From NCBI GenBank assembly GCA_028703305.1, contig JAQVNC010000001.1:56791-120790 (forward strand): 64,000 nucleotides of DNA. The letters run 5' to 3'. Shown one piece after another: positions 644 to 62,785 of the stretch. Origin of the DNA: Patescibacteria group bacterium. Lineage in GTDB: Bacteria; Patescibacteriota; Patescibacteriia; Patescibacteriales; GWC2-42-12. Positions within the stretch are counted from its first letter, which is position 1. Each line of letters begins with the position of its first letter. Under the pieces are notes generated by a model, which saw only the letters and a program-made list of their open reading frames with translations, had not been told where the DNA came from and did no database searches. The position numbers and the translations under genes were made by a program.

Positions 644-1070
644 TATAAAACAGTTTATTTTCCGCTCCGCTCGGGACCGCTTTTTTAATAAAGCGGTGCA
701 AAAATCGCGAGCTGGAGAAAATTTAGGGAATTTTTAGGCTACGCTCGGGATAATTTATAACTCGCCTAGACGGCTCAAACATATAAATTATCTAATCTCG
801 CTTTCGCCTAAAAATTCCACTAAATTTTCTAGGCTCGCCTTTAAAATACAATTAAAAATCACCCGGGGGTTCGGGGGTTGGAGTTGGCGCCAAGGCTTAC
901 AGAGATTAGATAAATCTACGTGATAGCCAATCGGAAACCCCCCGAGACTTTTTGCTTACTTTTTAGTCATAAAAAGTAAGTCCTAGCGAAGCGTCACGAA
1001 TGCCTATCAGTTTAAAAAAGTTTGCTATATAAAAACAACCCCTATTTTAGAAGTTGTTTTTATGTTTATT

Positions 1071-3189: not shown

Positions 3190-3275
3190 GTTTAATGAGA
3201 TAGCTAATATTAGCTAAATTTAATTAAGTGGATAAGTTGGGGGTAAATATTAATAATTTGTTAATTTTTAAATAT

Positions 3276-4193
3276 ATGTTTGATACAATAATCATTGGCG
3301 CCGGTCCGACAGGGATGTCGGCAGCTATATATGCCGCCAGAAGAATGATGAAAACATTGGTAATCTCTAAAAATATAGGCGGCCAGGTTATCTGGGCTTC
3401 TGATATAAAAAATTATCCTGGCATAGAGTTTATTAAAGGCTTTGATTTGATAACTAAAATGAGCCGACAGGTGAAAGATCTTGGGGTTGAGATTAAAGCT
3501 GATGAAGTAAAAAAGATCAGCAAAAATAGTGATAATAGCTTTTTAATTGAAGGCAATAAGGCCAGTTATACGGCTAAAACAATAATTATTGCCATGGGGC
3601 TGGCGCCCAGACAGCTTAATTTGGACAAAGAAAATGAGTTAACCGGCAGGGGAATAAGCTACTGCGCCAATTGTGATGGACCATTGTTCAAGGGTAAAAC
3701 TGTGGCTGTGGCTGGGGGCGGCAACGCGGCCTTGGACGCGGCTGAAGTTATGTCTAAAATTGCCAACAAGGTTTATTTGATTTATCGCAAGCCGCAACTA
3801 AAAGCTTTTGAAAGCTTGGTTTCAGCAGTTAAAGATAAAAGTAATGTGGAGATAATTTTAAGCAGTGAAATTTGCCAGATAATTGGCAGTGAAAAATTGG
3901 AAAAATTGAAAATAATTTCTAATATTAGCCAAGAATCAAGAGAATTAGCTGTGGATGGGCTGTTTGTTGAAATTGGCCATCAACCCAAAACAGAGGTGTT
4001 GGAAGGATTAGTGGAAAGAGATAGTTTAGGGCAGGTTGTTGTGGACTTAAGTGGTAAAACCAGCTGTGATGGAGTTTTCGCGGCCGGCGATGTTACTCAA
4101 AGCGAATTTAAGCAGATTGTTATAGGCTGCGGCCAAGGCGCGGTAGCCGCGTTGTCGGCTTATCAATACTTGCAGACAAGCAAACAAAGTTAA
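3276..4193 (+). CDS. trxB: Thioredoxin-disulfide reductase
   Basis: GAGPTG FAD motif, redox CANCDG, GGGNAA NADPH motif, C-terminal GVFAAGDV; an alternative GTG start lies at 3228. Confidence 0.85.
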   Translation: MFDTIIIGAGPTGMSAAIYAARRMMKTLVISKNIGGQVIWASDIKNYPGIEFIKGFDLITKMSRQVKDLGVEIKADEVKKISKNSDNSFLIEGNKASYTAKTIIIAMGLAPRQLNLDKENELTGRGISYCANCDGPLFKGKTVAVAGGGNAALDAAEVMSKIANKVYLIYRKPQLKAFESLVSAVKDKSNVEIILSSEICQIIGSEKLEKLKIISNISQESRELAVDGLFVEIGHQPKTEVLEGLVERDSLGQVVVDLSGKTSCDGVFAAGDVTQSEFKQIVIGCGQGAVAALSAYQYLQTSKQS

Positions 4194-4211
4194 GATAGAA
4201 ATTGCAGATGA

Positions 4212-4318
4212 AGATTGGGCTAAATTTATAAAATTTTCTACTGCGGAACTCGCCCCAACTTAGCGTCGGGGCTCAAACAGTCCTCGCACGAAAATTTTAC
4301 AAGATTTAGCCCAATCTT
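4212..4318 (+). repeat. About 107-nt long-hairpin palindromic element (copy 1; second copy at 9150..9249), possibly a structured RNA
   Basis: Arms gattgggctaaatttataaaatttt…aaaattttacaagatttagcccaatc with a central GC hairpin cccc…gggg; the copy at 9150 has compensatory changes in both outer and central stems. Confidence 0.6.
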
Positions 4319-4328
4319 ATTGCATTAT

Positions 4329-4937
4329 ATGCTAGATTTAACAGAAGAGAAAAAATTATTTTCTCAAGGCTATAAGATAATAGGCGCTTTAGATGAGGCT
4401 GGGCGCGGGCCTTTAGCCGGGCCGGTAGTGGCCGCCTGCGTTATTTTTAATGCTAATATTAGCATAAATAACGACTTAATCAAAGTTAATGACTCAAAAA
4501 AATTAAGCGAAAAAACCAGAGAGGATTTATTTGAGTTAATTAGAAAAAATTTTCTTGAAGTTGGCGTAGGTATATGCGACCATAAAACCATAGACAGAAT
4601 TAATATATTGCAAGCCACGTTTTTGGCCATGAAGAAGGCGATTAGCTCTGTAAAAATCAAGCCGGATTTTATTATAATTGACGGGTCAGCCAACTTACCT
4701 AATTATTCAACTCCGCAGCAAGCTTATATTAAAGGCGATGAAAGGCTTTTTACTGTCGCCGCGGCTTCAATTATCGCCAAAGTGACCAGAGACAGAATAA
4801 TGCGAGAAATGGATAAATTATATCCGGACTACGGTTTTAGCCGGCATAAAGGCTATGGCACTAAATTTCATCTGGAAAAATTAAGGCAATACGGCCCGTG
4901 CGCGATTCACCGTTTAAGTTTTAATAAGGTTAAATAA
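4329..4937 (+). CDS. rnhB: Ribonuclease HII
   Basis: GxDEAGRGPLAGPVVAA active-site region and RNase HII fold; a TTG alternative start lies at 4320. Confidence 0.85.
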   Translation: MLDLTEEKKLFSQGYKIIGALDEAGRGPLAGPVVAACVIFNANISINNDLIKVNDSKKLSEKTREDLFELIRKNFLEVGVGICDHKTIDRINILQATFLAMKKAISSVKIKPDFIIIDGSANLPNYSTPQQAYIKGDERLFTVAAASIIAKVTRDRIMREMDKLYPDYGFSRHKGYGTKFHLEKLRQYGPCAIHRLSFNKVK

Positions 4938-5017
4938 CGGATAGTATTTTAAAGCTTGTTTAAAAACAAAAATTATTTTATAATGAAAGATATAATCAGG
5001 AAATAATAATTTTTTAT

Positions 5018-5572
5018 ATGCCAGTATCAACAGGAGGCAACACGTTAATTGATGTTAATTTGCTTTTTAGCAAAGCTCAAATTGAAGAAAAAATGAAAGT
5101 CGCCGATTTAGGCTGCGGTTCTTCCGGTCATTTTGTTTTTCCCGCGGCTAAGTTAATCGGCAAAAAAGGAACTATGTACGCGGTTGATATTTTAAGAACT
5201 TCCTTGGAAACGATTAGCAAACGTGCTCGTGTTGAAAATTTGGCTAACATTAAAACAATTTGGAGTAATCTGGAAATATTCGGCGCTACTAAAATTGAAG
5301 CCGGCAGCTTGGACGTTGGCTTGTTAATCAATACTTTGTATCAATCTCATAAGCGAGCTGAAATTTTAAGAGAATCAATCAGGTTGTTGAAAAAAAATGG
5401 CAGGTTGGTTATTGTTGAATGGAAAAACGTTGCCGCGCCGTTCGGCCCGCCGGCGGAAGAAAGAGTAAAAAAAGCATTGGTTGATAACGCGGCTAAAAAA
5501 CTCGGGCTAAGGCCGGAGGATGAATTTGAAGCCGGGCCTTATCATTACGGGCTGATTTACGTAAAGTCATAA
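5018..5572 (+). CDS. Class I SAM-dependent methyltransferase
   Basis: DLGCGSSG motif I and Rossmann-like downstream motifs. Confidence 0.6.
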   Translation: MPVSTGGNTLIDVNLLFSKAQIEEKMKVADLGCGSSGHFVFPAAKLIGKKGTMYAVDILRTSLETISKRARVENLANIKTIWSNLEIFGATKIEAGSLDVGLLINTLYQSHKRAEILRESIRLLKKNGRLVIVEWKNVAAPFGPPAEERVKKALVDNAAKKLGLRPEDEFEAGPYHYGLIYVKS

Positions 5573-5589
5573 AAATTAATTTATTCATT

Positions 5590-5979
5590 ATGGGAAATTT
5601 TTTAACTTGGAATTTTTGGTTTAGCGCCAGGCCTGGCGCATTTACCGACCTTTCTCTTAAAATGGTTTTGGGCTTTATTTTTTTATTGATTATTTTGTCC
5701 ATTGCCAGCGGGGTTATTAAAAAAAGATGGCTTAAAAGTTTATATTTTTCTTTTTGGAGCGGTTTATACACTTTTTTTATTACCAATGCCATTATCGGCT
5801 TAGTGCTAACGTTTTTTAATTATGAAATGGTGCCGTTTTTATCCGCCCGGTTTTGGTTTCTGTTTTGGGCTATAGGCATGTTGGTTTGGCTGGTCTTTAT
5901 TTGCAGGCTTGCCATAAAAATACCGGAGAAAAAGGCGCAAATGGAAAAAGAAAAGGAGTTCAAAAAATATATTCCATAG
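5590..5979 (+). CDS. Hypothetical integral membrane protein (4 predicted TM segments)
   Basis: Hydrophobic segments; function unknown. Confidence 0.45.
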   Translation: MGNFLTWNFWFSARPGAFTDLSLKMVLGFIFLLIILSIASGVIKKRWLKSLYFSFWSGLYTFFITNAIIGLVLTFFNYEMVPFLSARFWFLFWAIGMLVWLVFICRLAIKIPEKKAQMEKEKEFKKYIP

Positions 5980-6031
5980 ATTGAAAATGATAATTTAAAT
6001 TTAGGGCTGTTCATCGGCCCTTTTTTGTTAT

Positions 6032-6391
6032 ATGACTCATAATCAAAGAATTGGAGAATTTGGTGAAACCTTAGCCAAAAATTATTTAATTAAACATGGC
6101 TATAAAATTATTGACGCTAATGTTAAATTAAGCTATCAAGAGCTTGATATTATAGCTTCGCGAGACGGCCAAATCGTTTTTGTGGAAGTAAAAACCAGAA
6201 TCAGCCAGTTTTATGGGCCGGCGGAAAATGCTTTTCAGTTTACTAAGCTTGAAAGATTTAGGCGGGGCATGGAAATGTATATTGGCAATAAAAATTTATA
6301 TGCCGAGGAGGTCAGGGCAGACTTAATTACTGTGGATATTGATCATATTAAAAAAACAGCCAAGATAAAGCATTATAAAGACGTAGTCTAA
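6032..6391 (+). CDS. yraN: YraN family (UPF0102) endonuclease
   Basis: GExGExLA…GYxIxxxNxRxxxGEIDIIA…VFVEVKTR pattern. Confidence 0.8.
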   Translation: MTHNQRIGEFGETLAKNYLIKHGYKIIDANVKLSYQELDIIASRDGQIVFVEVKTRISQFYGPAENAFQFTKLERFRRGMEMYIGNKNLYAEEVRADLITVDIDHIKKTAKIKHYKDVV

Positions 6392-6692
6392 ATTATTTTA
6401 ATGGTTTTTTGCAAAATGCTTTCAGTTTGTGCACTTGTTTATTAACAATTTATCAGCCTTTAATAACATTTTATCAACTCTTGGTGCACTTGACGCTCTT
6501 TAGCTCAGGCAGTTAAACTGAAGTCACCGCTAATATTTTTGTTTAAGTACGCGAGCGGTAATTTTTAAAAATTTTCTTATTAGGGCTAGAAGGACAAGTC
6601 GGCTTAGCTGATTTAATCCCTTTAGCCCTATAATAGAAAAATATTTTTTAGTATTTTAAGCAAGGGGGCTATAATAATAAATTTTCAACACC

Positions 6693-7886
6693 ATGAAAGC
6701 ATTAAAAAGTTTGTTAATTGTTAGCCTCGTTTTATTTTTTTCCGTAATTTTTTCAAATTATGCCTTGGCCGAAGAAACAGCGCCTATTTTAATTTCACCG
6801 GCGCCGTCCGCTGAAGTTAAAGTCGAGATTAAGCCATCACCGGCGCCGACATTAATCGCGCCTAACCAAACAACCATTACCGCTAAAGTAAAGCCGCTGA
6901 TTATCGGCTTAACTAAAAGCGGCAGCTTAGTTAAAATTTTTATTGACGGGGTTTATAACGGCAAGACGGAAATTTTAAACCATGAAAGCGGCACGGCCAA
7001 TTTTTCTTATACGCCATTTTTAAATTTAAGCCGCGGCTGGCACGAAGTTTATGCTATGGCCGAGAATAAAACCGGCGGAGCCAGCAAAAAATCGGCGGTT
7101 TTACGTTTTAATATTGAACTGCCCATGCCGGCGCCGACTATTTTCAAGCCGGTAGTTAATAAAGACACTTCTTCAAACCGGCCTTTTATCGTCGGTTTGG
7201 CGAAAAATGATTCTAAAATTAAAGTTTATATTGATAAAAAGCTAAACGGAGAATTTGAGGTTAAAAATCATCCGAGCGGCATTGCCAATTTTGCTTACAA
7301 GCCGGTTAAGCTATTGGAGCGAGGCAGCCATTTAGTTCACGCCGTGGCTGTAGATAAGCGCGGCAAACAAAGCAGTTGGTCAAATCCGGTTTATTTTTCA
7401 GTTAAGAATTCCGCTATCGCCCAATCAGCCGTTGAAGAAAAAAGTGATACGGTTGCCAGCATCAAAGAACCGGAAGCGACAGTTAAAGTAAATTCCGAAA
7501 CGCCGATTATTTCTAAGAGCTCCGGCGAGGTTGAAAAAAAATCAGATGAACTAACAGAGATTAAAACGGAGGCGGATAAGGCTATTAATAAATTAATCCG
7601 GCAGGATCAGGCCGGTTTGGATGAAATAAAAAGTTTAATTAGAGGCGATAAAGCGGAAAAAACTAGCGCCGGGCAAGGCATGATCAATGAAGGCAAATCA
7701 AACCAAGGGAAATTAAAATTAAGCCTGGTCTTGTTTATTCTCTTTTTGGTCGGCGTGGTGGCTTGGCTGTTATGGGTTAATCGCGAGCTGGTTAAAGAGC
7801 GCCGAGCGCAAAATGAAGCTGAAGAAAAAACCGATAAAGAAAAAGAGGATTTGACAAGCGGCGGACAAAAAGATAAGTTATTATAA
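6693..7886 (+). CDS. Cell-surface protein with a signal peptide, two tandem Ig-like repeats and a C-terminal TM anchor
   Basis: N-terminal signal peptide, an internal duplication (IFIDGVYNGKTEILNHESGTANFSY… / KVYIDKKLNGEFEVKNHPSGIANFAY…), and a C-terminal hydrophobic helix plus charged tail. Confidence 0.6.
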   Translation: MKALKSLLIVSLVLFFSVIFSNYALAEETAPILISPAPSAEVKVEIKPSPAPTLIAPNQTTITAKVKPLIIGLTKSGSLVKIFIDGVYNGKTEILNHESGTANFSYTPFLNLSRGWHEVYAMAENKTGGASKKSAVLRFNIELPMPAPTIFKPVVNKDTSSNRPFIVGLAKNDSKIKVYIDKKLNGEFEVKNHPSGIANFAYKPVKLLERGSHLVHAVAVDKRGKQSSWSNPVYFSVKNSAIAQSAVEEKSDTVASIKEPEATVKVNSETPIISKSSGEVEKKSDELTEIKTEADKAINKLIRQDQAGLDEIKSLIRGDKAEKTSAGQGMINEGKSNQGKLKLSLVLFILFLVGVVAWLLWVNRELVKERRAQNEAEEKTDKEKEDLTSGGQKDKLL

Positions 7887-7948
7887 TCAGACAGTTGTTG
7901 ATTAAGTTAAATATAATAGATGAATTTGTTCCCGGAACGGGCCCCTTC

Positions 7949-7990
7949 TACACCCCTCCCAGTTTAACTGGAGAGGGGTGTTGCCTTTAA
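7949..7990 (+). terminator. GC-rich hairpin terminator after the surface-protein gene
   Basis: acacccctcccag-tttaa-ctggagaggggtgt. Confidence 0.5.
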
Positions 7991-8068
7991 TTAGCGCCTG
8001 CCCGGCTTGACAAAAATAACAGGTATGGTATAATTTAGATAGTTGTCTAAATATCTAAATATTTTTAT

Positions 8069-8335
8069 ATGACTTTAAATATCACCCTGCAAGCTTTATC
8101 CGATCCGACCAGGCGCAAAATTTTAGAAATTTTAAAGAAAAAAGACCTGGCGGCCGGAGAGCTTGGCAAAAATTTTGATATGACTCTGCCCTCGCTGTCG
8201 CACCACTTAAATGTTTTAAAGCAGGCGGATTTAGTAACTAGCCGGCGCCGTGGCCAAGAAATTATTTATTCTTTAAATTTAAGCGTTTTTGAGGAAATCG
8301 CGGAAAAATTAATTAAATTTTTTAAAAAACTTTAA
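8069..8335 (+). CDS. ArsR/SmtB-family HTH transcriptional regulator (SdpR-like by context)
   Basis: LSDPTRRKILEIL…ELGKNFDMTLPSLSHHLNVLKQADLV winged-HTH; it lies upstream of an SdpI-family gene. Confidence 0.8.
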   Translation: MTLNITLQALSDPTRRKILEILKKKDLAAGELGKNFDMTLPSLSHHLNVLKQADLVTSRRRGQEIIYSLNLSVFEEIAEKLIKFFKKL

Positions 8336-8398
8336 AAACCTTTTTAGAAAAGGTTTTCCCTCAAGAGGATAAATAATATTTTCCAAAAATATAATGTA

Positions 8399-8453
8399 TC
8401 AAGTAAGAATTTAATAGCGGGCAAAGCCCTACGGCCATTAAATTCTTACTTGA
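8399..8453. promoter_or_regulatory. Perfect 17-bp inverted repeat with a 21-nt GC loop, immediately downstream of a TATAAT box and upstream of the sdpI-like gene; candidate operator or RNA hairpin
   Basis: tcaagtaagaatttaat-[agcgggcaaagccctacggcc]-attaaattcttacttga. Confidence 0.4.
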
Positions 8454-8463
8454 TGAAAAATCT

Positions 8464-9138
8464 ATGGCTAATCCAATCAAGCCAACAATTAAAACCGAAT
8501 TTATTCCCTTGCTTTTAATAATTTTAACCGCGGCCGCTTCGGTGTTTTTTTATAATAATCTGCCTGAACGCATCGCTACCCATTGGAATTTCGCCGGCCA
8601 GGTTGACGCTTATGGGTCGGGCAAAGCGCAAGCGGTTGCTTTGCCGTCAATGATTATTGGCATGTATTTGCTTTTTTTGGTATTCCCTTATCTGGATCCC
8701 AAAAAAGAGCGATACGAGCAGTTTAGCAAGGTATATCATATTTTTAAGGCCATAATTTTGGGACTTTTGGTTATTGTATATTTTATTGTCGGACTAAACG
8801 GTTTAGGCTATAATTTGCCCGTTGGCGTAATTATACCGTTTCTGATTGGTTTGTTATTCATCATCATCGGCAACTACATGGCTAAGATAAAAATGAATTG
8901 GTTTATGGGCATTCGCACGCCCTGGACGCTGTCTAGCGAAGAAATTTGGAATAAAACCCATCGTTTTGGTGGTAAAATATTTGTCTTGGCCGGCCTATTG
9001 ATGATGGCGGAGACTATTTTGCCATTGAGCTGGAAATTGCCGGTTTTTGTGTTTATGATAGCGGCTTTATTGTTCGGCACTATAGGTTATTCTTATATTA
9101 TTTTTCTTCTGGAAAAAAAGAAAAAAAAATTTAATTAA
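8464..9138 (+). CDS. SdpI/YhfL-family membrane protein (DUF1648 + SdpI immunity domain)
   Basis: IATHWNFAGQVDAYGSG (DUF1648) and NYMAKIKMNWFMGIRTPWTLSSEEIWNKTHRFGGK (SdpI motif), with 5-6 TM helices. Confidence 0.75.
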   Translation: MANPIKPTIKTEFIPLLLIILTAAASVFFYNNLPERIATHWNFAGQVDAYGSGKAQAVALPSMIIGMYLLFLVFPYLDPKKERYEQFSKVYHIFKAIILGLLVIVYFIVGLNGLGYNLPVGVIIPFLIGLLFIIIGNYMAKIKMNWFMGIRTPWTLSSEEIWNKTHRFGGKIFVLAGLLMMAETILPLSWKLPVFVFMIAALLFGTIGYSYIIFLLEKKKKKFN

Positions 9139-9149
9139 AACTACATTAA

Positions 9150-9249
9150 GCTTGGCCTAAATTTATAAAATTTTCTACTGCGGAACTCGGCCGCCTGCTG
9201 GCGGCCTCAAACAGTCCTCGCACGAAAATTTTACAAATTCAGCCCAAGC
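9150..9249 (+). repeat. Second copy of the long-hairpin element (see 4212..4318), with covarying stems
   Basis: gcttggcctaaatttataaaattttctactgcggaactcg-GCCGCCtgctGGCGGC-ctcaaacagtcctcgcacgaaaattttacaaattcagcccaagc. Confidence 0.6.
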
Positions 9250-9251
9250 AT

Positions 9252-10043
9252 TTGTTCTATATGTTAAGAAACATTGAAAGCCAGCATAATCCATTGATTA
9301 AAAATTTAATAAAGTTGCGCGAAGCCGGCCGGGAAAGAAAGCGACAAGGCTTGTTTTTAATTGAGGGTTGGCGTGAAATAAATTTGGCGCTAAAGGGCGG
9401 AGTGGAAATTGTTAATTTGTTTTATTGCCGAGATTATATTAAGCAAGAATTGGAATTTGATGAAGAAAAATTAATTGAAGTCTCAAAAAAAGTTTTTGCT
9501 AAAATATCTTATCGGGAAAATCCTGACGGTTTTTTGGCGGTAGCAAAGTTTAGGGAAATAAAATTAGAAAACATAGAATTAAGCCCCAAGCCGTTAATAA
9601 TTATTTTGGAAGCGGTGGAAAAACCGGGAAATTTAGGCGCGATTTTGCGCACGGCCGACGCGGCCGGAGCGGACGCCGTTATAATTAATGATCCTAAAAC
9701 CGATATTTATAATCCGAACGTAATCCGCGCCAGCCAAGGCACGGTTTTTACTGTGCCGGTAGTTTTAAATTCAATTGACGAAACAATTAATTTTTGCAAA
9801 AGCAAAAAAATAAAAATTTTAGCCACTACGCCGGACACGAAGAAAGAATATATTGAAGTTGATTATAATGGCGGCTGTGCTATAGTAATGGGCGCGGAAG
9901 ACAAGGGTTTAAGCGATGAATGGCTGGCATCGGCTAATGAAAAAATTAAAATAAAAATGAGGGGGATAATAGATTCATTAAACGTTTCGGTCAGTACAGC
10001 CATAATTTTGTTTGAAGCCGTAAGGCAGAGAAATAATAAATAA
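9252..10043 (+). CDS. TrmH/SpoU-family RNA 2'-O-methyltransferase (RlmB-like)
   Basis: SPOUT motifs LIIILEAVEKPGNLGAILRTADAAGADAVII…IVMGAEDKGLS; the start may be the ATG at 9261. Confidence 0.8.
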   Translation: MFYMLRNIESQHNPLIKNLIKLREAGRERKRQGLFLIEGWREINLALKGGVEIVNLFYCRDYIKQELEFDEEKLIEVSKKVFAKISYRENPDGFLAVAKFREIKLENIELSPKPLIIILEAVEKPGNLGAILRTADAAGADAVIINDPKTDIYNPNVIRASQGTVFTVPVVLNSIDETINFCKSKKIKILATTPDTKKEYIEVDYNGGCAIVMGAEDKGLSDEWLASANEKIKIKMRGIIDSLNVSVSTAIILFEAVRQRNNK

Positions 10044-14927: not shown

Positions 14928-15110
14928 AAATCGTTTTCGCGGCGGAGCGGTTTTGCTCAACGTCGGCGCATATAAGAAGAAATGCGAAACGAGTTGAGGT
15001 GGTACAATTTGTGCGGAGCACTACCACCGAAAACGAGTGTAGCATTTTTTGCGTGAACGAGCCATGCGAGTGAGCCTTATATGCGCTGTTATATGCTGTG
15101 CCAGCCTTAT
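14928..15110. repeat. GC-rich repeat A: the 3' half of the 66-bp core plus a variable hairpin module (gcgcatataag…cttatatgcgc)
   Basis: cgcggcggagcggttttgctcaacg matches the right half of the cores at 15731 and 18911; long-range cgttttcg/cgaaaacg pairing. Confidence 0.6.
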
Positions 15111-15574: not shown

Positions 15575-15900
15575 TTAAGGCTGACATGGCATATAACGCG
15601 CGCGGGATATGCGATGCGCCTGGAGGCCAGTACTCTGGCCGCAAGGCGTTTCGCATATCCCGAGTTGGGCGATGCCGCTCCGCCTTGCCCGTAGGGCGGG
15701 CGAGCGGCGAGTCCAACGAGGGCCTGCCCGCGCGCGTTGAGCAAAACCGCGAGCACCGAGCGTTAGCGAGGGCGGAGCGGTTTTGCTCAACGTATCGGCA
15801 TATCTGATGTTTGCCGTAGCGTAGCGGAGGCAAATATGGGTGGAGGCTTTTGTATAAAAGCCGTAACCAGATATGCCGTGTTATGTGATGTGCATGTTTT
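15575..15900. repeat. GC-rich repeat B: hairpin cgggatatgcga…tcgcatatcccg, then the 66-bp core (15731..15796), then a variable hairpin module (ggcatatctg…cagatatgcc)
   Basis: The core cgcgcGTTGAGCaaaaccgc…gcggttttGCTCAACgtatc is identical to 18911..18976. Confidence 0.7.
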
Positions 15901-18879: not shown

Positions 18880-19140
18880 AACAAATTTTTCAAAAATATG
18901 TCGCCTAACGCGCGCGTTGAGCAAAACCGCGAGCACCGAGCGTTAGCGAGGGCGGAGCGGTTTTGCTCAACGTATCCGAATATACGAAGTTCTAATTTTT
19001 TTCTGTGTTATAATTGTGCGGACACGCCAACGCAGAAAAAAATTAGAATTTAGGCGGAGATAAAATTCAACTCATTAATGTAATGTAAAAAGGAATTTTA
19101 TCGGAGCCGTATATTCGGTGTTATCGGATGTAAAATTTAT
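18880..19140. repeat. GC-rich repeat C: GCCTAAC-gcgcgc then the 66-bp core (18911..18976) then a variable module (cgaatatacg…cgtatattcg, with a nested ttctaatttttttctg…cagaaaaaaattagaa hairpin)
   Basis: 66-bp perfect identity with 15731..15796; the flanking stems covary around a central ATAT. Confidence 0.7.
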
Positions 19141-19597: not shown

Positions 19598-19634
19598 TTT
19601 TTTCTGGATTCCCGCCTGTGCGGGAATGACAAGC
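19598..19634 (+). repeat. Short hairpin repeat ttttctggattcccgcctgtgcgggaatgacaa (S2)
   Basis: Same consensus as the copies at 20845, 50640, 11187 and 62333. Confidence 0.65.
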
Positions 19635-19638
19635 GGGA

Positions 19639-20814
19639 TTATTTTTCCAATATAACTATCTCCCGCCAAACCTTTTGCCCGTCGCGGCCGTAGATAATAC
19701 TGTCGCGGTTGGTTATTTTTAGAAAAATATTTTTTTTCAGGTTGGCCGGTATAGAGCCAATAATTTTATAACCATCTATGTTAGGGTAGATAAAAGTTGA
19801 AAGTTTTCCCTGAAACACGGGCCAAATCATCACGATTTTACCACCGGGTTTTAAAATTTTTTTAAATTCTCTTAAACTTTCGGAATATAATTTTTCCAGT
19901 TCAGTTTTTATTTTATTAATCGGCGTATTGCCTCTTTGCGGGCCTAAATACGGTTCGGTAATAATAAAATCTATTGAATTCGGCGCAATGTGTTTTGAAA
20001 TTTGCGCGGCGTCAGAATGAAAAAGCTTAAAATTTAAAGCTTCAAGTTTAAAATTAGATTGAACCCAGGCGAGATTATTTTTTGTGTCTCCGAGAGCCCT
20101 GTCGGATATATCAGAACCGGTTATTTTTTTATAGCCCATTAAAGCCGCTTCGGTAATAATCGTGCCAGAACCGCAAAATGGATCTAAAATAGCCGCGCCT
20201 AAATCCGCGCCAGCTAAATTTATCATAATCTGCGCCAGCTTGGGCGGCAACATGCCGGAATAATCGTCGCGCGCCGGCCGGCCGTAATCTCTAAATGACA
20301 ATTCTTTAAACGGCTGGACGGCCAGGGTTTTTCCTAAAAGTAATTTTTTATTAAATTCAATAATAACGATTTCCACGCCTTTGTCCGTAACTAATTTGTT
20401 CTGCTCCACCACTACGCTTGATAAAGTCGGTTCCCGGCTTATAACCCAGCGGCTATTTATGCCTGACTCTTTAAGTAATTTTTTAAATTCCATGCCTAAA
20501 ACTTTTAAGTTAATTTTACTTTTACCATAATAAGAAATGCCAAAATTAAATTTTGAATCACTTTTTTCCGGTTTGGCGAAGCTGGTAGCTGATTTTAAAA
20601 TGTCTTTAACAGCAATTGAAGCTGGCTCGCCATGAATTAGGCCGAATTTAACGGTGCCGCCGATTTTTTTAATAATATTAGCCTTTATTTCTTCGTTAGT
20701 TTCTAAAATCGCGATATTTTTTTGAATTAAAGAAAATTGGCCATGATTAAAAACGGCCGTTAGTTCGGCTAAGGATAAAGTCGGGTTGGTGCCCAGAATG
20801 AAGAAATAACGCAT
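19639..20814 (-). CDS. THUMP-domain RNA methyltransferase (RlmL/Trm-G10-like, UPF0020)
   Basis: N-terminal THUMP-like region plus DPFCGSGTIITEAALMGYKKITGSDIS…, a SAM-binding methylase core. Confidence 0.7.
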   Translation of the reverse strand: MRYFFILGTNPTLSLAELTAVFNHGQFSLIQKNIAILETNEEIKANIIKKIGGTVKFGLIHGEPASIAVKDILKSATSFAKPEKSDSKFNFGISYYGKSKINLKVLGMEFKKLLKESGINSRWVISREPTLSSVVVEQNKLVTDKGVEIVIIEFNKKLLLGKTLAVQPFKELSFRDYGRPARDDYSGMLPPKLAQIMINLAGADLGAAILDPFCGSGTIITEAALMGYKKITGSDISDRALGDTKNNLAWVQSNFKLEALNFKLFHSDAAQISKHIAPNSIDFIITEPYLGPQRGNTPINKIKTELEKLYSESLREFKKILKPGGKIVMIWPVFQGKLSTFIYPNIDGYKIIGSIPANLKKNIFLKITNRDSIIYGRDGQKVWREIVILEK

Positions 20815-20844: not shown

Positions 20845-20877
20845 TTTTCTGGATTCCCGCTTTCGCGGGAATGACGA
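20845..20877 (+). repeat. Short hairpin repeat ttttctggattcccgctttcgcgggaatgacgaa (S3)
   Basis: Consensus family member; lies in the THUMP-MTase upstream region. Confidence 0.6.
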
Positions 20878-21114
20878 AGGTAATTTAATTAAACCTTAGC
20901 ATAAGAATATGGCTCTTGCAATTTATTTTTGGCTGTGGTAATGTATGAATACAATTTAATTTAACCTTTCCCATATTTAACTGCTAGTGCTGTTAAATAG
21001 CCTGGCGCAAAGCCAGACTAAAGGTATTCTCAAGTAATCCCATGATTGGCAATTCAAGCCGCGAGAATATCTTGGGATTTTTGTTAATAAGGCAAAAATT
21101 AACCAATTAAAATT

Positions 21115-22121: not shown

Positions 22122-22234
22122 GTCATTGCGAGCGAACGGAGTGAGCGAAGCAATCTCACGTATGAGAAGTTTAAATTATAATTTTTACTTCGTGGGATTG
22201 CTTCGTCGCCTATTACGGCTCCTCGCAATAACAA
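22122..22234. repeat. Nested palindromic repeat L1 (gtcattgcgag…gaagcaatctcac…gtgggattgcttc…ctcgcaataacaa), intercistronic between ssb and rpsR
   Basis: Outer and inner inverted blocks shared with five other copies. Confidence 0.75.
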
Positions 22235-23107: not shown

Positions 23108-23245
23108 GTCATTGCGAGCGTTAGCGAAGCAATCTCACGAACAATTTAAATAGAATAAATTTTTATTGCAGTGATAATCTATGATTTTAATAAATAGTAT
23201 GTGAGATTGCTTCGTCGCACGAGTACGTACTCCTCGCAATGACAA
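23108..23245. repeat. Nested palindromic repeat L2, between the efp and recA 3' ends
   Basis: gtcattgcgagcgttagcgaagcaatctcac…gtgagattgcttcgtcgcacgagtacgtactcctcgcaatgacaa. Confidence 0.75.
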
Positions 23246-37743: not shown

Positions 37744-37845
37744 GTCATTGCGAGGAGCCACGTACTCGTGGCGACGCGGCAATCTCTGGTTGAGCTCCGA
37801 GTATGTGAGATTGCTTCGCTTCCTTTGGTCGCTCGCAATGACAAT
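37744..37845. repeat. Nested palindromic repeat L3
   Basis: gtcattgcgaggagccacgtactcgtggcgacgcggcaatctctg…gtgagattgcttcgcttcctttggtcgctcgcaatgacaa; near-identical to L6. Confidence 0.75.
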
Positions 37846-50629: not shown

Positions 50630-50700
50630 GTTATTGCGAAAAATTTCTGGATTCCCGCCTGCGCGGGAATGACAAATTGGAGATTGGTCGCAATGACATT
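50630..50700 (+). repeat. Short hairpin repeat S4 (tttctggattcccgcctgcgcgggaatgacaa) nested inside a minimal gttattgcgaa…gtcgcaatgaca frame; it supplies ATGs upstream of gdh
   Basis: Shares the consensus of the other S copies; the flanks resemble the termini of the L family. Confidence 0.65.
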
Positions 50701-51955: not shown

Positions 51956-52064
51956 GTCATTGCGAGCTTCTGAAAGAAGCGAAGCAATCTCACGAATGGC
52001 AAGTTTGGGTAAAAAATTGTTGTCCGTGAGATTGTTTCGTCGCTGAAGCTCCTCGCAATGACAG
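51956..52064. repeat. Nested palindromic repeat L4
   Basis: gtcattgcgagcttctgaaagaagcgaagcaatctcac…gtgagattgtttcgtcgctgaagctcctcgcaatgaca. Confidence 0.75.
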
Positions 52065-57480: not shown

Positions 57481-57620
57481 ATTTTTATGGTAGCAAGTTT
57501 ATTTATTTTTGTCATGCCAGCCGTAGCCTGCCCCCTTTCTTTTGACAAAAAGAGTGGAAAAAACTACTATTAAGATAAAGATTTTGTATTATCGTAGACA
57601 GTATTTATTAAATTATGAGT

Positions 57621-57662
57621 GTGTGAGATTGCTTCGTCGCTGGAGCTCCTCGCAATGACAAT
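57621..57662. repeat. Right half of nested palindromic repeat L5 (a possible degenerate left arm lies near 57513)
   Basis: gtgtgagattgcttcgtcgctggagctcctcgcaatgacaa. Confidence 0.6.
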
Positions 57663-58920: not shown

Positions 58921-59013
58921 GTCATTGCGAGGAGCGCTAGCGACGAAGCAATCTCTGGTTAATATCCGAGTACGTGAGATTGCTTCGCTCCTTTCAGTCG
59001 CTCGCAATGACAC
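58921..59013. repeat. Nested palindromic repeat L6, abutting the glyA stop
   Basis: gtcattgcgaggagcgctagcgacgaagcaatctctg…gtgagattgcttcgctcctttcagtcgctcgcaatgaca. Confidence 0.75.
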
Positions 59014-62074: not shown

Positions 62075-62785
62075 ATGGATAAACAAACGCAGAAAAATTT
62101 ATTAGAGCTGGTAAAAAAAAATTACGAGGAAATCGCGGAGAATTTTGATATAACCAGAAAAAAACAGTTATGGCCGGAGCTTTTGAAATTGGCCGAAATG
62201 GTGAAAGATGGAGATAGAATTTTAGATGTTGGCTGTGGCAACGGTAGATTGATAGAAGCGTTTGGCGAAAAGAAAATAGAATATCTGGGAGTGGATAGTA
62301 GTGAGAAACTGGTTGAAACGGCGAAGAAGAATCTGGGCTCCCGCCTGCGCGGGCATGACAAATTGGCGGTCGGTGATATTTTAAAATTGGATAAATTGCC
62401 GGAGAAAGATTTTAATTATGTTTTTTGCATTGCCGTCTTGCACCATCTGCCGGGCGAAGATTTAAGGCTGGAAGCTTTAAAGCAGATGAAAAATAAAATA
62501 AATAGTAACGGCAAAATTATAATCACGGTTTGGAATTTATGGAGCCGGTGGAAATTTATAAAATTGATTTTTAAGTACGGTTGGTTTAAGTCAGCCGGCA
62601 AAAACCAGATGGACTTCGGCGATATTTTGTTTGATTGGAAAAATAATAAGGGCGAGCGGATTAGCCGGCGGTATTACCATGCCTTTACCAAAAATGAATT
62701 AAAAAAACTGTCTGTCCGCGCGGGGTTTAAAGCGGAGAAAATATATAAAGATAAATATAATTATTACGCGATTTTAACCAAATAG
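62075..62785 (+). CDS. Class I SAM-dependent methyltransferase carrying an in-frame repeat-derived insertion
   Basis: LDVGCGNGRL motif I; residues …LGSRLRGHDKLAVGD… are encoded by an S-type repeat. Confidence 0.65.
   Translation: MDKQTQKNLLELVKKNYEEIAENFDITRKKQLWPELLKLAEMVKDGDRILDVGCGNGRLIEAFGEKKIEYLGVDSSEKLVETAKKNLGSRLRGHDKLAVGDILKLDKLPEKDFNYVFCIAVLHHLPGEDLRLEALKQMKNKINSNGKIIITVWNLWSRWKFIKLIFKYGWFKSAGKNQMDFGDILFDWKNNKGERISRRYYHAFTKNELKKLSVRAGFKAEKIYKDKYNYYAILTK

Follow-up and report, generated by a model that had tools for sequence, protein, structure and literature searches.

What are the two hairpins of ~105 nt that lie between genes at 4212..4318 and 9150..9249 of a 64,000-nucleotide stretch from a Patescibacteria group bacterium (contig JAQVNC010000001.1; this whole stretch is referred to here as the window)? 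A first-pass annotation, made from the letters of the window, had described them as intercistronic elements and had left several interpretations side by side, including a structured RNA, a processing site, a terminator and a mobile palindromic element of the REP (repetitive extragenic palindromic) or MITE (miniature inverted-repeat transposable element) type. Both hairpins are real and lie at these coordinates, and the trxB stop at 4193, the sdpI-like stop at 9138 and the next open reading frames (ORFs) at 4320 and 9252 bear out their intercistronic placement. They belong to a multi-copy, gene-less, polar hairpin insertion with an invariant asymmetric apex, freely compensating arms and turnover in specific gene spacers and in one protein loop. 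On balance, we consider them probable copies of a non-autonomous mobile palindromic DNA element that behaves like REP/REPIN repeats and Rickettsia palindromic elements (RPEs) and would be mobilised in trans.

The two copies, A and B, are 87% identical across ~140 aligned nt and share identical blocks of 33 and 31 nt, CTAAATTTATAAAATTTTCTACTGCGGAACTCG and CTCAAACAGTCCTCGCACGAAAATTTTACAA. Core probes of 17 and 19 nt gave 2 matches each in the 64 kb, against chance expectations of ~0.08 and 0.00. The alignment agrees with the earlier description in that the apical hairpins (GCCCCAACTTAGCGTCGGGGC in copy A, GGCCGCCTGCTGGCGGCC in copy B) and the outer stems (GATTGGG/CCCAATC and GCTTGG/CCAAGC, respectively) differ, with complementarity kept in both copies. 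The element reaches ~8 nt further left than the bounds given above, to a one-sided motif, RCAK, and measures ~110 nt as a whole. We designate the version on the + strand of the window (ACTGCGGAACTC...TCAAACAGTCC) as P and its complement (GGACUGUUUGA...GAGUUCCGCAGU) as M. Copy A (4204..4318, + strand, P orientation, ACTGCGG...) is composed of the RCAK motif GCAG (4204..4207), which lies outside the palindrome and ~30 nt upstream of a TTTTCT anchor, and a long imperfect hairpin (4211-4318). On the + strand its core comprises a 5′ block, ACTGCGGAACTC (4240..4251), which reads GAGUUCCGCAGU on the − strand; the variable apical GC hairpin GCCCCAACTTAGCGTCGGGGC (4252..4272); and a 3′ block, TCAAACAGTCCTCG (4273..4286), which reads CGAGGACUGUUUGA on the − strand. 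Copy B (9143..9249, + strand) has the same orientation, with the RCAK motif ACAT at 9143..9146 (+ strand), the hairpin at 9150-9249 and a core at 9177..9217 (+ strand) in which ACTGCGGAACTC is followed by the apical hairpin GGCCGCCTGCTGGCGGCC (9189-9206) and then by TCAAACAGTCC. In the window a covariance model, R1, recovered only these two canonical copies at 72 bits each (copy A, 72.2 bits at 4224-4299; copy B, 72.3 bits at 9161-9233; both on the − strand).

The exact split core, ACTGCGGAACTC-[variable hairpin]-TCAAACAGTCC, was present at no fewer than 111 genome loci in a search of one genome per species and at no fewer than 120 metagenome loci, more than 230 in total. Its carriers span at least 7 phyla and fall in the Patescibacteria, Bacteroidota, Bacillota, Beta- and Gammaproteobacteria, Campylobacterota, Spirochaetota and Actinomycetota. 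Hosts among the matches listed include Saccharibacteria, Gracilibacteria, Parcubacteria/Falkowbacteria, Bacteroidales, Johnsonella (Bacillota), Methylophilaceae, Iodobacter, Maricurvus and other Gammaproteobacteria, Halarcobacter, a Spirochaetota single-amplified genome and an Actinomycetota metagenome-assembled genome. Across phyla the 35-nt central core is identical, and the arms are unrelated between lineages. In divergent copies the loop may be GUYYGA and AGUUC may become AGUCC; a truncated copy was seen at L013:3252, and tandem copies occur in Bacteroidales (L011, L041). Distant mini-core hairpins, found at position 743 of the window, in L039, in Maricurvus, in L110 and on Ralstonia megaplasmids, retain only YUGUYUGA-[hairpin]-GAGUU, and the GA...GA around the apical stem is invariant even in the mini-core families of Ralstonia, Maricurvus and window 743.

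BLAST searches of plasmids returned no canonical copy; Ralstonia mini-core hairpins came up instead, with several long hairpins per megaplasmid in 128 plasmid records, in which they are unannotated. These hairpins, such as the one at L115:1455-1570 (megaplasmid of Ralstonia pseudosolanacearum GMI1000), contain only the mini-core GGC-UGUCUGAG-CGAAG-CGAGUUU-GCC. A search of 2.9 million viral contigs gave no match to the core, which indicates that phages do not carry the element. No Rfam 15 family was matched at the gathering threshold by the window and 18 diverse loci, or in E-value mode by three copies; the only matches were to generic miRNA-precursor families, at <=25 bits against cut-offs of 80-100 bits, and hammerhead, twister and other ribozymes were unmatched. 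A full-text literature search with the core string gave only coincidental matches of hepatitis B virus primers to ACTGCGGAACTC, and we found no description of the element in Rfam or the searched literature. Some lineages have arrangements of their own. Maricurvus nonylphenolicus has a canonical family of 173-nt hairpins with the conserved flanks TTAGTGCNATCCCC and TACCT (L058:7100-7190, L063), and also a variant-core family, GGAGGU-UGUCUGAG...GAGUU-UACGUAGCG. In Bacteroidales (L064, L091, L011), several copies lie directly downstream of tRNA genes, and there are two tandem pairs, 184-378 bp apart.

Evidence for movement comes from a comparison of the window, which derives from a metagenome-assembled Patescibacteria genome close to Falkowbacteria, with three relatives, L112, L113 and L114 (TrxB ~84% identical), in which gene order is kept from dnaA onwards. 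Copy A lies between trxB (thioredoxin-disulfide reductase, 3228..4193, outside the element) and the RNase HII gene rnhB (4320..4937; ORF from 4320, ATG at 4329), and copy B between genes for an SdpI/DUF1648 membrane protein (8464..9138) and a SpoU-family RNA methyltransferase (9252..10043), all four on the + strand. The trxB-rnhB spacer, filled in the window, is filled in L112 by a copy with the same arms in which the core is swapped for a plain hairpin, CCCGCAtttGCGGGG; it holds a different AT-rich palindrome in L113 and is empty (16 bp) in L114. The sdpI-spoU spacer, filled in the window by a copy with subfamily 1 arms, is empty (11 bp) in L112 and filled in both L113 and L114 by copies with subfamily 2 arms (CAGCTYCACGGATAYTCG..., loop GUCUGA). 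Gains or losses of the element thus fall within the span over which genera diverge, and the same spacers are re-used. The L112 copy (L112:7951-8070), orthologous to copy A, has nearly unchanged arms and lacks the whole core, and is a natural core-deletion allele.

Because relatives have empty spacers of 11-16 bp or have lost the core, the element is dispensable for these operons, and the orthologous spacers do not support a local role that the operon needs. The mobile palindromic (REP/MITE-like) option among the original suggestions is the one upheld by the empty and filled states of the window sites in relatives, by the number of copies, by their occurrence in both orientations and by in-frame insertions described below. 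Filled-versus-empty alignments of both window sites gave no convincing target duplication, the flanks being too diverged for base-exact junctions. Two apparent target duplications, an AT-rich one at the sdpI site and the sequence ATTGCA at copy A, were set aside as not general. The frame of the SpoU methyltransferase is open backwards across copy B, with no start codon within the element. At L113:12918-13886, the public gene call for this methyltransferase takes in the element and starts 63 codons too far upstream, an extension made possible by the open frame 0 of P; such repeats can corrupt start-site annotation and confuse gene calling and assembly of metagenome-assembled genomes.

The first-pass annotation had regarded non-compensatory divergence of further copies as the outcome that would speak against selection on structure. 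In 21 full-length copies of the Patescibacteria family to which the window belongs, 93% of cells were paired and 19 of 27 outer-stem pairs had changed on both sides, a number reached in 0 of 500 shuffles; pairing has therefore been kept as the copies diverged. The covariation itself thus holds. The conclusion drawn from it, selection on structure, does not follow strictly when the element is a long DNA palindrome, because template-switch correction of quasi-palindromes can also generate paired changes. Arm mismatches counted by column were about equally G.U and A.C (13 vs 10). The orthologous copies of L113 and L114 differ by one compensated change in the arms, and their apical hairpins are wholly different, each of them perfect.

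Folded as RNA, each copy forms one long hairpin (z = -6.8 to -8.9; 0 of 200 shuffles folded as well), and a long hairpin is also predicted for single-stranded DNA (ssDNA; z = -4.8 to -8.1). The two strands are not equivalent. As RNA, M reaches -56.9 kcal/mol in both copies, versus -46.5 and -42.4 kcal/mol for P in copies A and B; as DNA, the values are -32 for M versus -24 to -27 kcal/mol for P. M was the more stable strand in 98 of 109 instances elsewhere. Most of this extra stability comes from the core, and the arms outside it have little strand asymmetry; an asymmetry of the arms alone that was considered disappeared once the first core-adjacent pair was left out.

On the M strand the apical module reads CGA-GGACU-GUYUGA-[variable hairpin]-G-AGUUC-CG-CAG-U. 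From base to tip, a basal stem is followed by a 3-nt CAG bulge, a CG:CG step, a 1-nt A bulge, the helix GGACU:AGUUC with one G.U pair, a 6x1 internal loop (GUUUGA opposite G) and the apical stem. Next to the core, N13-U72 forms an A-U pair in 35 sequences and a G.U pair in 31. Across 67 cores the first apical pair covaries (G-C 47, A-U 7, C-G 5, G.U 4, U.G 2), as do basal pairs, with shuffled and slid controls far lower. GNA triloops and GCGNAGC mini-hairpins dominate at the tip of M, and GNRA or UUCG loops are nearly absent there; d(GCGNAGC) is an unusually stable DNA hairpin. The stem outside the apex comprises 25-90 bp whose sequence varies by lineage and copy with self-complementarity kept, the outermost stem being the most variable part of the element. 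Hairpin length ranges from 75 to 230 nt across lineages, and the core is always at the apex.

The element is polar outside the core as well. In the Patescibacteria family, RCAK (consensus ACAKKAR) stands on the P strand at -29/-28 from the TTTTCT anchor. It was present on the left in 47 of 62 non-identical copies and on the right in 8 of 62, compared with a mean of 13 and a maximum of 26 in shuffles; its reverse complement occurred in 11 and 8 of the 62 copies on the two sides. The motif is often followed by TAR and lies 5-8 nt outside the stem, not abutting it, and it differs from GTAG. Orientation relative to genes is also biased. At 146 non-redundant sites, P was on the sense strand of co-directional neighbours in 65 cases and M in 24 (p = 1.6e-5); 19 sites were convergent and 11 divergent. 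P was on the locally G-rich strand at 86 of 116 sites (p = 2e-7). Maricurvus offers only 3 copies for a comparison of strand with replichore, too few to be informative. An idea that the left flank pairs with the inner CGCAGTAGAA as in a guide-target system was dropped, since the mean score of 5.57 did not differ significantly from 5.09 in shuffled sequence (right flank, 5.33); left-flank complementarity to CGCAGTAGAA is striking in L081 and L015.

Copies also lie inside genes. At ~16 Saccharibacteria loci, the element is in frame in a class I aminoacyl-tRNA synthetase, between the catalytic and anticodon-binding domains; homologues of this protein are named isoleucyl-tRNA synthetase (IleRS), and the encoded peptide contains ...TGDTAELAALKQSSY.... 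A Patescibacteria gene for serine hydroxymethyltransferase (SHMT) has an in-frame copy in the M orientation (one gene; L019:5090-5180), and a gene that we read from its sequence as MnmG/GidA-like has one in the P orientation and in the same phase as IleRS (L143:1937-1966). These amount to 3 independent intragenic events among ~150 sites. At the same position of IleRS, proteins that are 85-93% identical have no insert, and other palindromic inserts (132 and 174 nt) are present in L117/L118. This surface loop is an insertion hot spot (L004:7280-7450; L117, L118), occupied in close relatives by the canonical element, by two unrelated palindromes or by nothing. Frame 0 of P is open in 36 of 73 copies, compared with 14-25 in the other frames, a difference that is no more than suggestive of a designed reading frame.

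We compared ileS in 11 Saccharibacteria genomes with a copy, which had been found with a search pattern that fixes only 23 core bases. Inside the 180-nt element region, 11 of 60 third positions were variable, versus 123 of 180 in the flanking 540 nt, and first and second positions were about equally variable inside and in the flanks (12.5% vs 12.2%). The arms are frozen as well, and conservation ends at the hairpin ends. Either the nucleic acid is under purifying selection or site-specific spread has been very recent.

How might such an element move? We propose that it would be mobilised in trans as a folded single strand, by an enzyme, on a strand and at junctions that we infer from the features described above. 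Recognition would rest on the asymmetric bulges of the apex, and the one-sided RCAK tetranucleotide would mark the cleavage or target site, by analogy with the Y1/HUH enzymes, TnpA of IS200/IS605 and the REP-associated tyrosine transposase (RAYT) with REP, which provide a model for such handling. The arms would need pairing only and could drift with compensation, and either the enzyme or some additional function in the host might keep the core invariant.

Several observations weigh against this proposal. Known REP/RAYT pairs are lineage-specific, whereas the 35-nt core is identical across phyla, and REPs are 20-50 nt long with GTAG, as opposed to a single 75-230-nt hairpin accompanied by RCAK. 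Such an enzyme would be expected to bind the small hairpin at the apex, which is the most variable part. The orientation bias might stem from transcription, not replication. Across 231 loci no transposase family recurs among the neighbours, and an HUH...Y regular expression, a weak test, detected 0 Y1/HUH-like ORFs among 1876 ORFs. Finally, the third-position contrast in ileS (Fisher p = 1.7e-11) points to a host function at the nucleotide level or to recent spread, and not to a passive relic. A simple analogy with REPs does not account for the sharing of the core between phyla, for the variability of the tip, for the single long hairpin or for the freezing of synonymous sites, and these points keep readings of the apex as a functional RNA or ssDNA motif alive. 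We attach a limited but appreciable chance to the possibility that the asymmetric apex (CGAGGACUGUYUGA-hairpin-GAGUUCCGCAGU, with candidate tandem G.A pairs, one G.U pair and two bulges) is an undescribed functional nucleic-acid module. It may serve for recognition in a new class of ssDNA mobile elements that is horizontally promiscuous, or it may be a new RNA motif, protein-binding or self-cleaving, that hitch-hikes on palindromic repeats. Selection would then keep the apex even at synonymous sites of an essential gene.

Could the hairpins work instead as RNA? A cis-acting structured RNA in operon mRNAs, read mainly from P as an mRNA stabiliser, an RNase III-type processing site or a translation tuner and secondarily spread, seems to us rather unlikely. 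It would suit the sense-strand position of P at 73% of co-directional sites, the location between a stop and the next start in compact operons, the strong hairpin with its covariation and the synonymous-site freezing in ileS mRNA, and REP hairpins are known to stabilise mRNA. Nevertheless, 27% of the co-directional sites have the opposite orientation, 11 sites lie between divergent genes and some lie inside coding sequences, and orthologous operons function with an empty 11-16-bp spacer or a deleted core. The P core is also the poorly paired version, with the wobble and G.A-type features all on M, and the apical loops are not GNRA or UNCG. Terminator features are missing. No promoter- or terminator-like site and no T-run was found in 4204-4318 or 9143-9249, and the terminator option of the first-pass annotation is not supported. 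An autonomous RNA module on M, either a k-turn/loop-E-type protein binder or a small self-cleaving ribozyme dispersed like hammerhead or twister, with the invariant internal loops as its active part, we judge improbable. Invariant junction or loop nucleotides with covarying stems and an apical stem of variable length typify ribozymes and riboswitches, and the element resembles them in this across phyla; M is the more stable strand in 98 of 109 instances, N13-U72 alternates between A-U (35) and G.U (31), ileS is constrained at the nucleotide level, and the invariant GA...GA round the apical stem suits 5′-YGAR-3′, the context of tandem sheared G.A pairs. Yet M is antisense to the flanking genes at most sites, no conserved promoter lies alongside, conservation in ileS ends at the hairpin ends, and the core was lost without consequence in L112. 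Nor was any Rfam ribozyme or motif matched; the hammerhead core (CUGANGA...GAAA) is absent, and the likeness to a k-turn is a resemblance only, as the bulge next to the invariant GA/GA would have 5 nt where a k-turn wants 3.

Two further explanations do without such an RNA and fare worse. Were the hairpins folded single-strand sites for a tyrosine recombinase (attC- or CTX-type, Xer-like) and their neighbours cassettes, the imperfect palindrome, in which extrahelical bases are conserved and the terminal structure varies, the strand-specific fold and the position directly after ORFs would be expected. However, the ends (GATTGGG...CCCAATC and GCTTGG...CCAAGC) lack RYYYAAC/GTTRRRY boxes, the flanking genes have housekeeping roles and keep their order beside dnaA whether the spacers are filled or empty, no integrase occurs among the neighbours in 231 loci, and some copies lie inside coding sequences; this explanation is largely refuted, and we hold it to be very improbable. 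Least credible of all is that the window copies arose by local duplication or persist as inert quasi-palindromic relics, with differences produced by template switching and with neither function nor mobility. The similar numbers of G.U and A.C mismatch columns (13 vs 10) fit it, as do apical hairpins that turn over fully yet stay perfect, as if one arm had been copied from the other. It is contradicted by the family-wide data, namely the same core at more than 230 loci in many phyla, the independent filling of one site by two subfamilies, an asymmetric core that is never "corrected" into a perfect palindrome, the one-sided motif and the frozen synonymous sites.

The window contains other hairpin repeats. 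At 743..794 (− strand), the arm GATAATTTATA/TATAAATTATC surrounds the mini-core TGTTTGAG-CCGTCTAGG-CGAGTT; model R1 scores this divergent relative weakly (11 bits, E about 1), and it is possibly a sister family of the element. It is flanked by mini-hairpins of the GCGAAAGC and GAGCGTAGC types. A separate family of short palindromic repeats, TCTGGATTCCCGCCTGCGCGGGAATGAC..., occurs at 19603-19645, 20848-20890, 50646-50688 and 62332-62374, and another family of hairpins, GTCATTGCGAGC...GAAGCAATCTCAC / GTGAGATTGCTTCG, at 22122-22209, 23186-23238, 37771-37843, 51956-52063, 57608-57660 and 58940-59012. An 83-nt repeat with the inverted repeat CGTTGAGCAAAACCGC...GCGGTTTTGCTCAACG, in copies that are 94% identical, is found at 14941-14979, 15729-15811 and 18909-18991.

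Compared with known systems, the element is a palindromic mobile repeat that works like REP/REPIN, RPE and IS200-type miniatures yet departs from defining features of each, and it also fails those of classical MITEs, attC sites, terminators and Rfam families. Its closest likeness to REP/REPIN repeats is that of multi-copy, mostly extragenic hairpin palindromes at gene ends, with no internal gene, which form a long ssDNA or mRNA hairpin with compensatory arm changes and a conserved stem mismatch or bulge, and which are polar units with a tetranucleotide motif, RCAK in the present case, to one side. For REPINs, compensatory substitutions in the hairpin and an asymmetric intermediate with a 5′ tail have been described (PMC3116915); REPs depend on their 5′ tetranucleotide and on a bulge conserved in the stem, and CT or CA is the cleavage site (PMC8266576). 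However, REPINs consist of two inverted REPs of 20-50 nt with a spacer, whereas here there is a single continuous hairpin whose arms are not conserved REPs; GTAG abuts the REP stem, whereas RCAK stands at a fixed distance; and the conserved part is the apex, not the ends. REP/RAYT pairs are also inherited vertically within lineages, in contrast to a core common to several phyla, and no RAYT was found among the neighbours in 231 loci. More broadly, all-against-all clustering of ORFs at these loci (1.6 Mb) yielded no recurrent neighbour gene, only housekeeping families.

IS200/IS605 elements have neither terminal inverted repeats nor target-site duplications, insert 3′ of a short motif and are biased towards the lagging-strand template (PMC8266576, and in part established knowledge). 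With these and their miniature derivatives, the palindrome-associated transposable elements (PATEs), the element shares the lack of conserved terminal inverted repeats and a bias to the G-rich (lagging-template) strand; the one-sided RCAK motif, the lack of a convincing target-site duplication in the filled-versus-empty alignments and the hairpin with extrahelical bases, as a putative recognition element, may be further likenesses. Theirs are separate, conserved left and right subterminal hairpins, as opposed to one long hairpin with a variable tip, and neither tnpA nor tnpB lies near the element. Classical MITEs (Correia, ERIC, RUP, BOX) are likewise small, non-coding, palindromic, multi-copy and intergenic, in either orientation and sometimes intragenic. 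They keep terminal inverted repeats and a target duplication, whereas here the ends are most variable and no duplication was seen, and their families are restricted to a genus or family. Integron attC sites resemble the element as imperfect palindromes after ORFs with a conserved asymmetry, a variable terminal structure and folding of one strand, but here there are no R″/R′ boxes and no integrase, and the neighbours are syntenic housekeeping genes. PARCEL repeats were rejected as tandem 25-residue coding repeats (PMC2996958), and TIGR-Tas was rejected because TIGRs are tandem guide arrays with a Tas gene, unlike the element. ERIC, hammerhead, group II domain V, SRP, 6S, Y RNA and boxA showed only superficial resemblance, and none was adopted.

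RPEs insert in frame by a mechanism that is unknown (PMC10969869). Like RPE-1 to RPE-10, compared here by their published description, the element forms palindromes of ~100-150 bp that are intergenic or lie in frame in unrelated housekeeping genes (here IleRS, SHMT and the MnmG-like gene) without destroying their hosts. It differs in its hosts, which are Patescibacteria, Bacteroidota, Bacillota, Proteobacteria and others, with no Rickettsia among the at least 111 genome matches listed, in its small number of independent intragenic events (3), and in its trans-phylum core, which is not reported for RPEs. The occurrence of palindromes in frame in essential proteins is thereby extended to the candidate phyla radiation, where the filled and empty alleles, the IleRS hot-spot loop and the frozen synonymous sites constitute a natural experiment on selection for structure versus selfish spread. 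Small palindromic repeats such as REPs, RPEs and MITEs have been regarded as lineage-restricted. The trans-phylum core of this element breaks that pattern and implies either a widely shared or transferable mobilising machinery not yet tied to such repeats or an uncatalogued functional motif.

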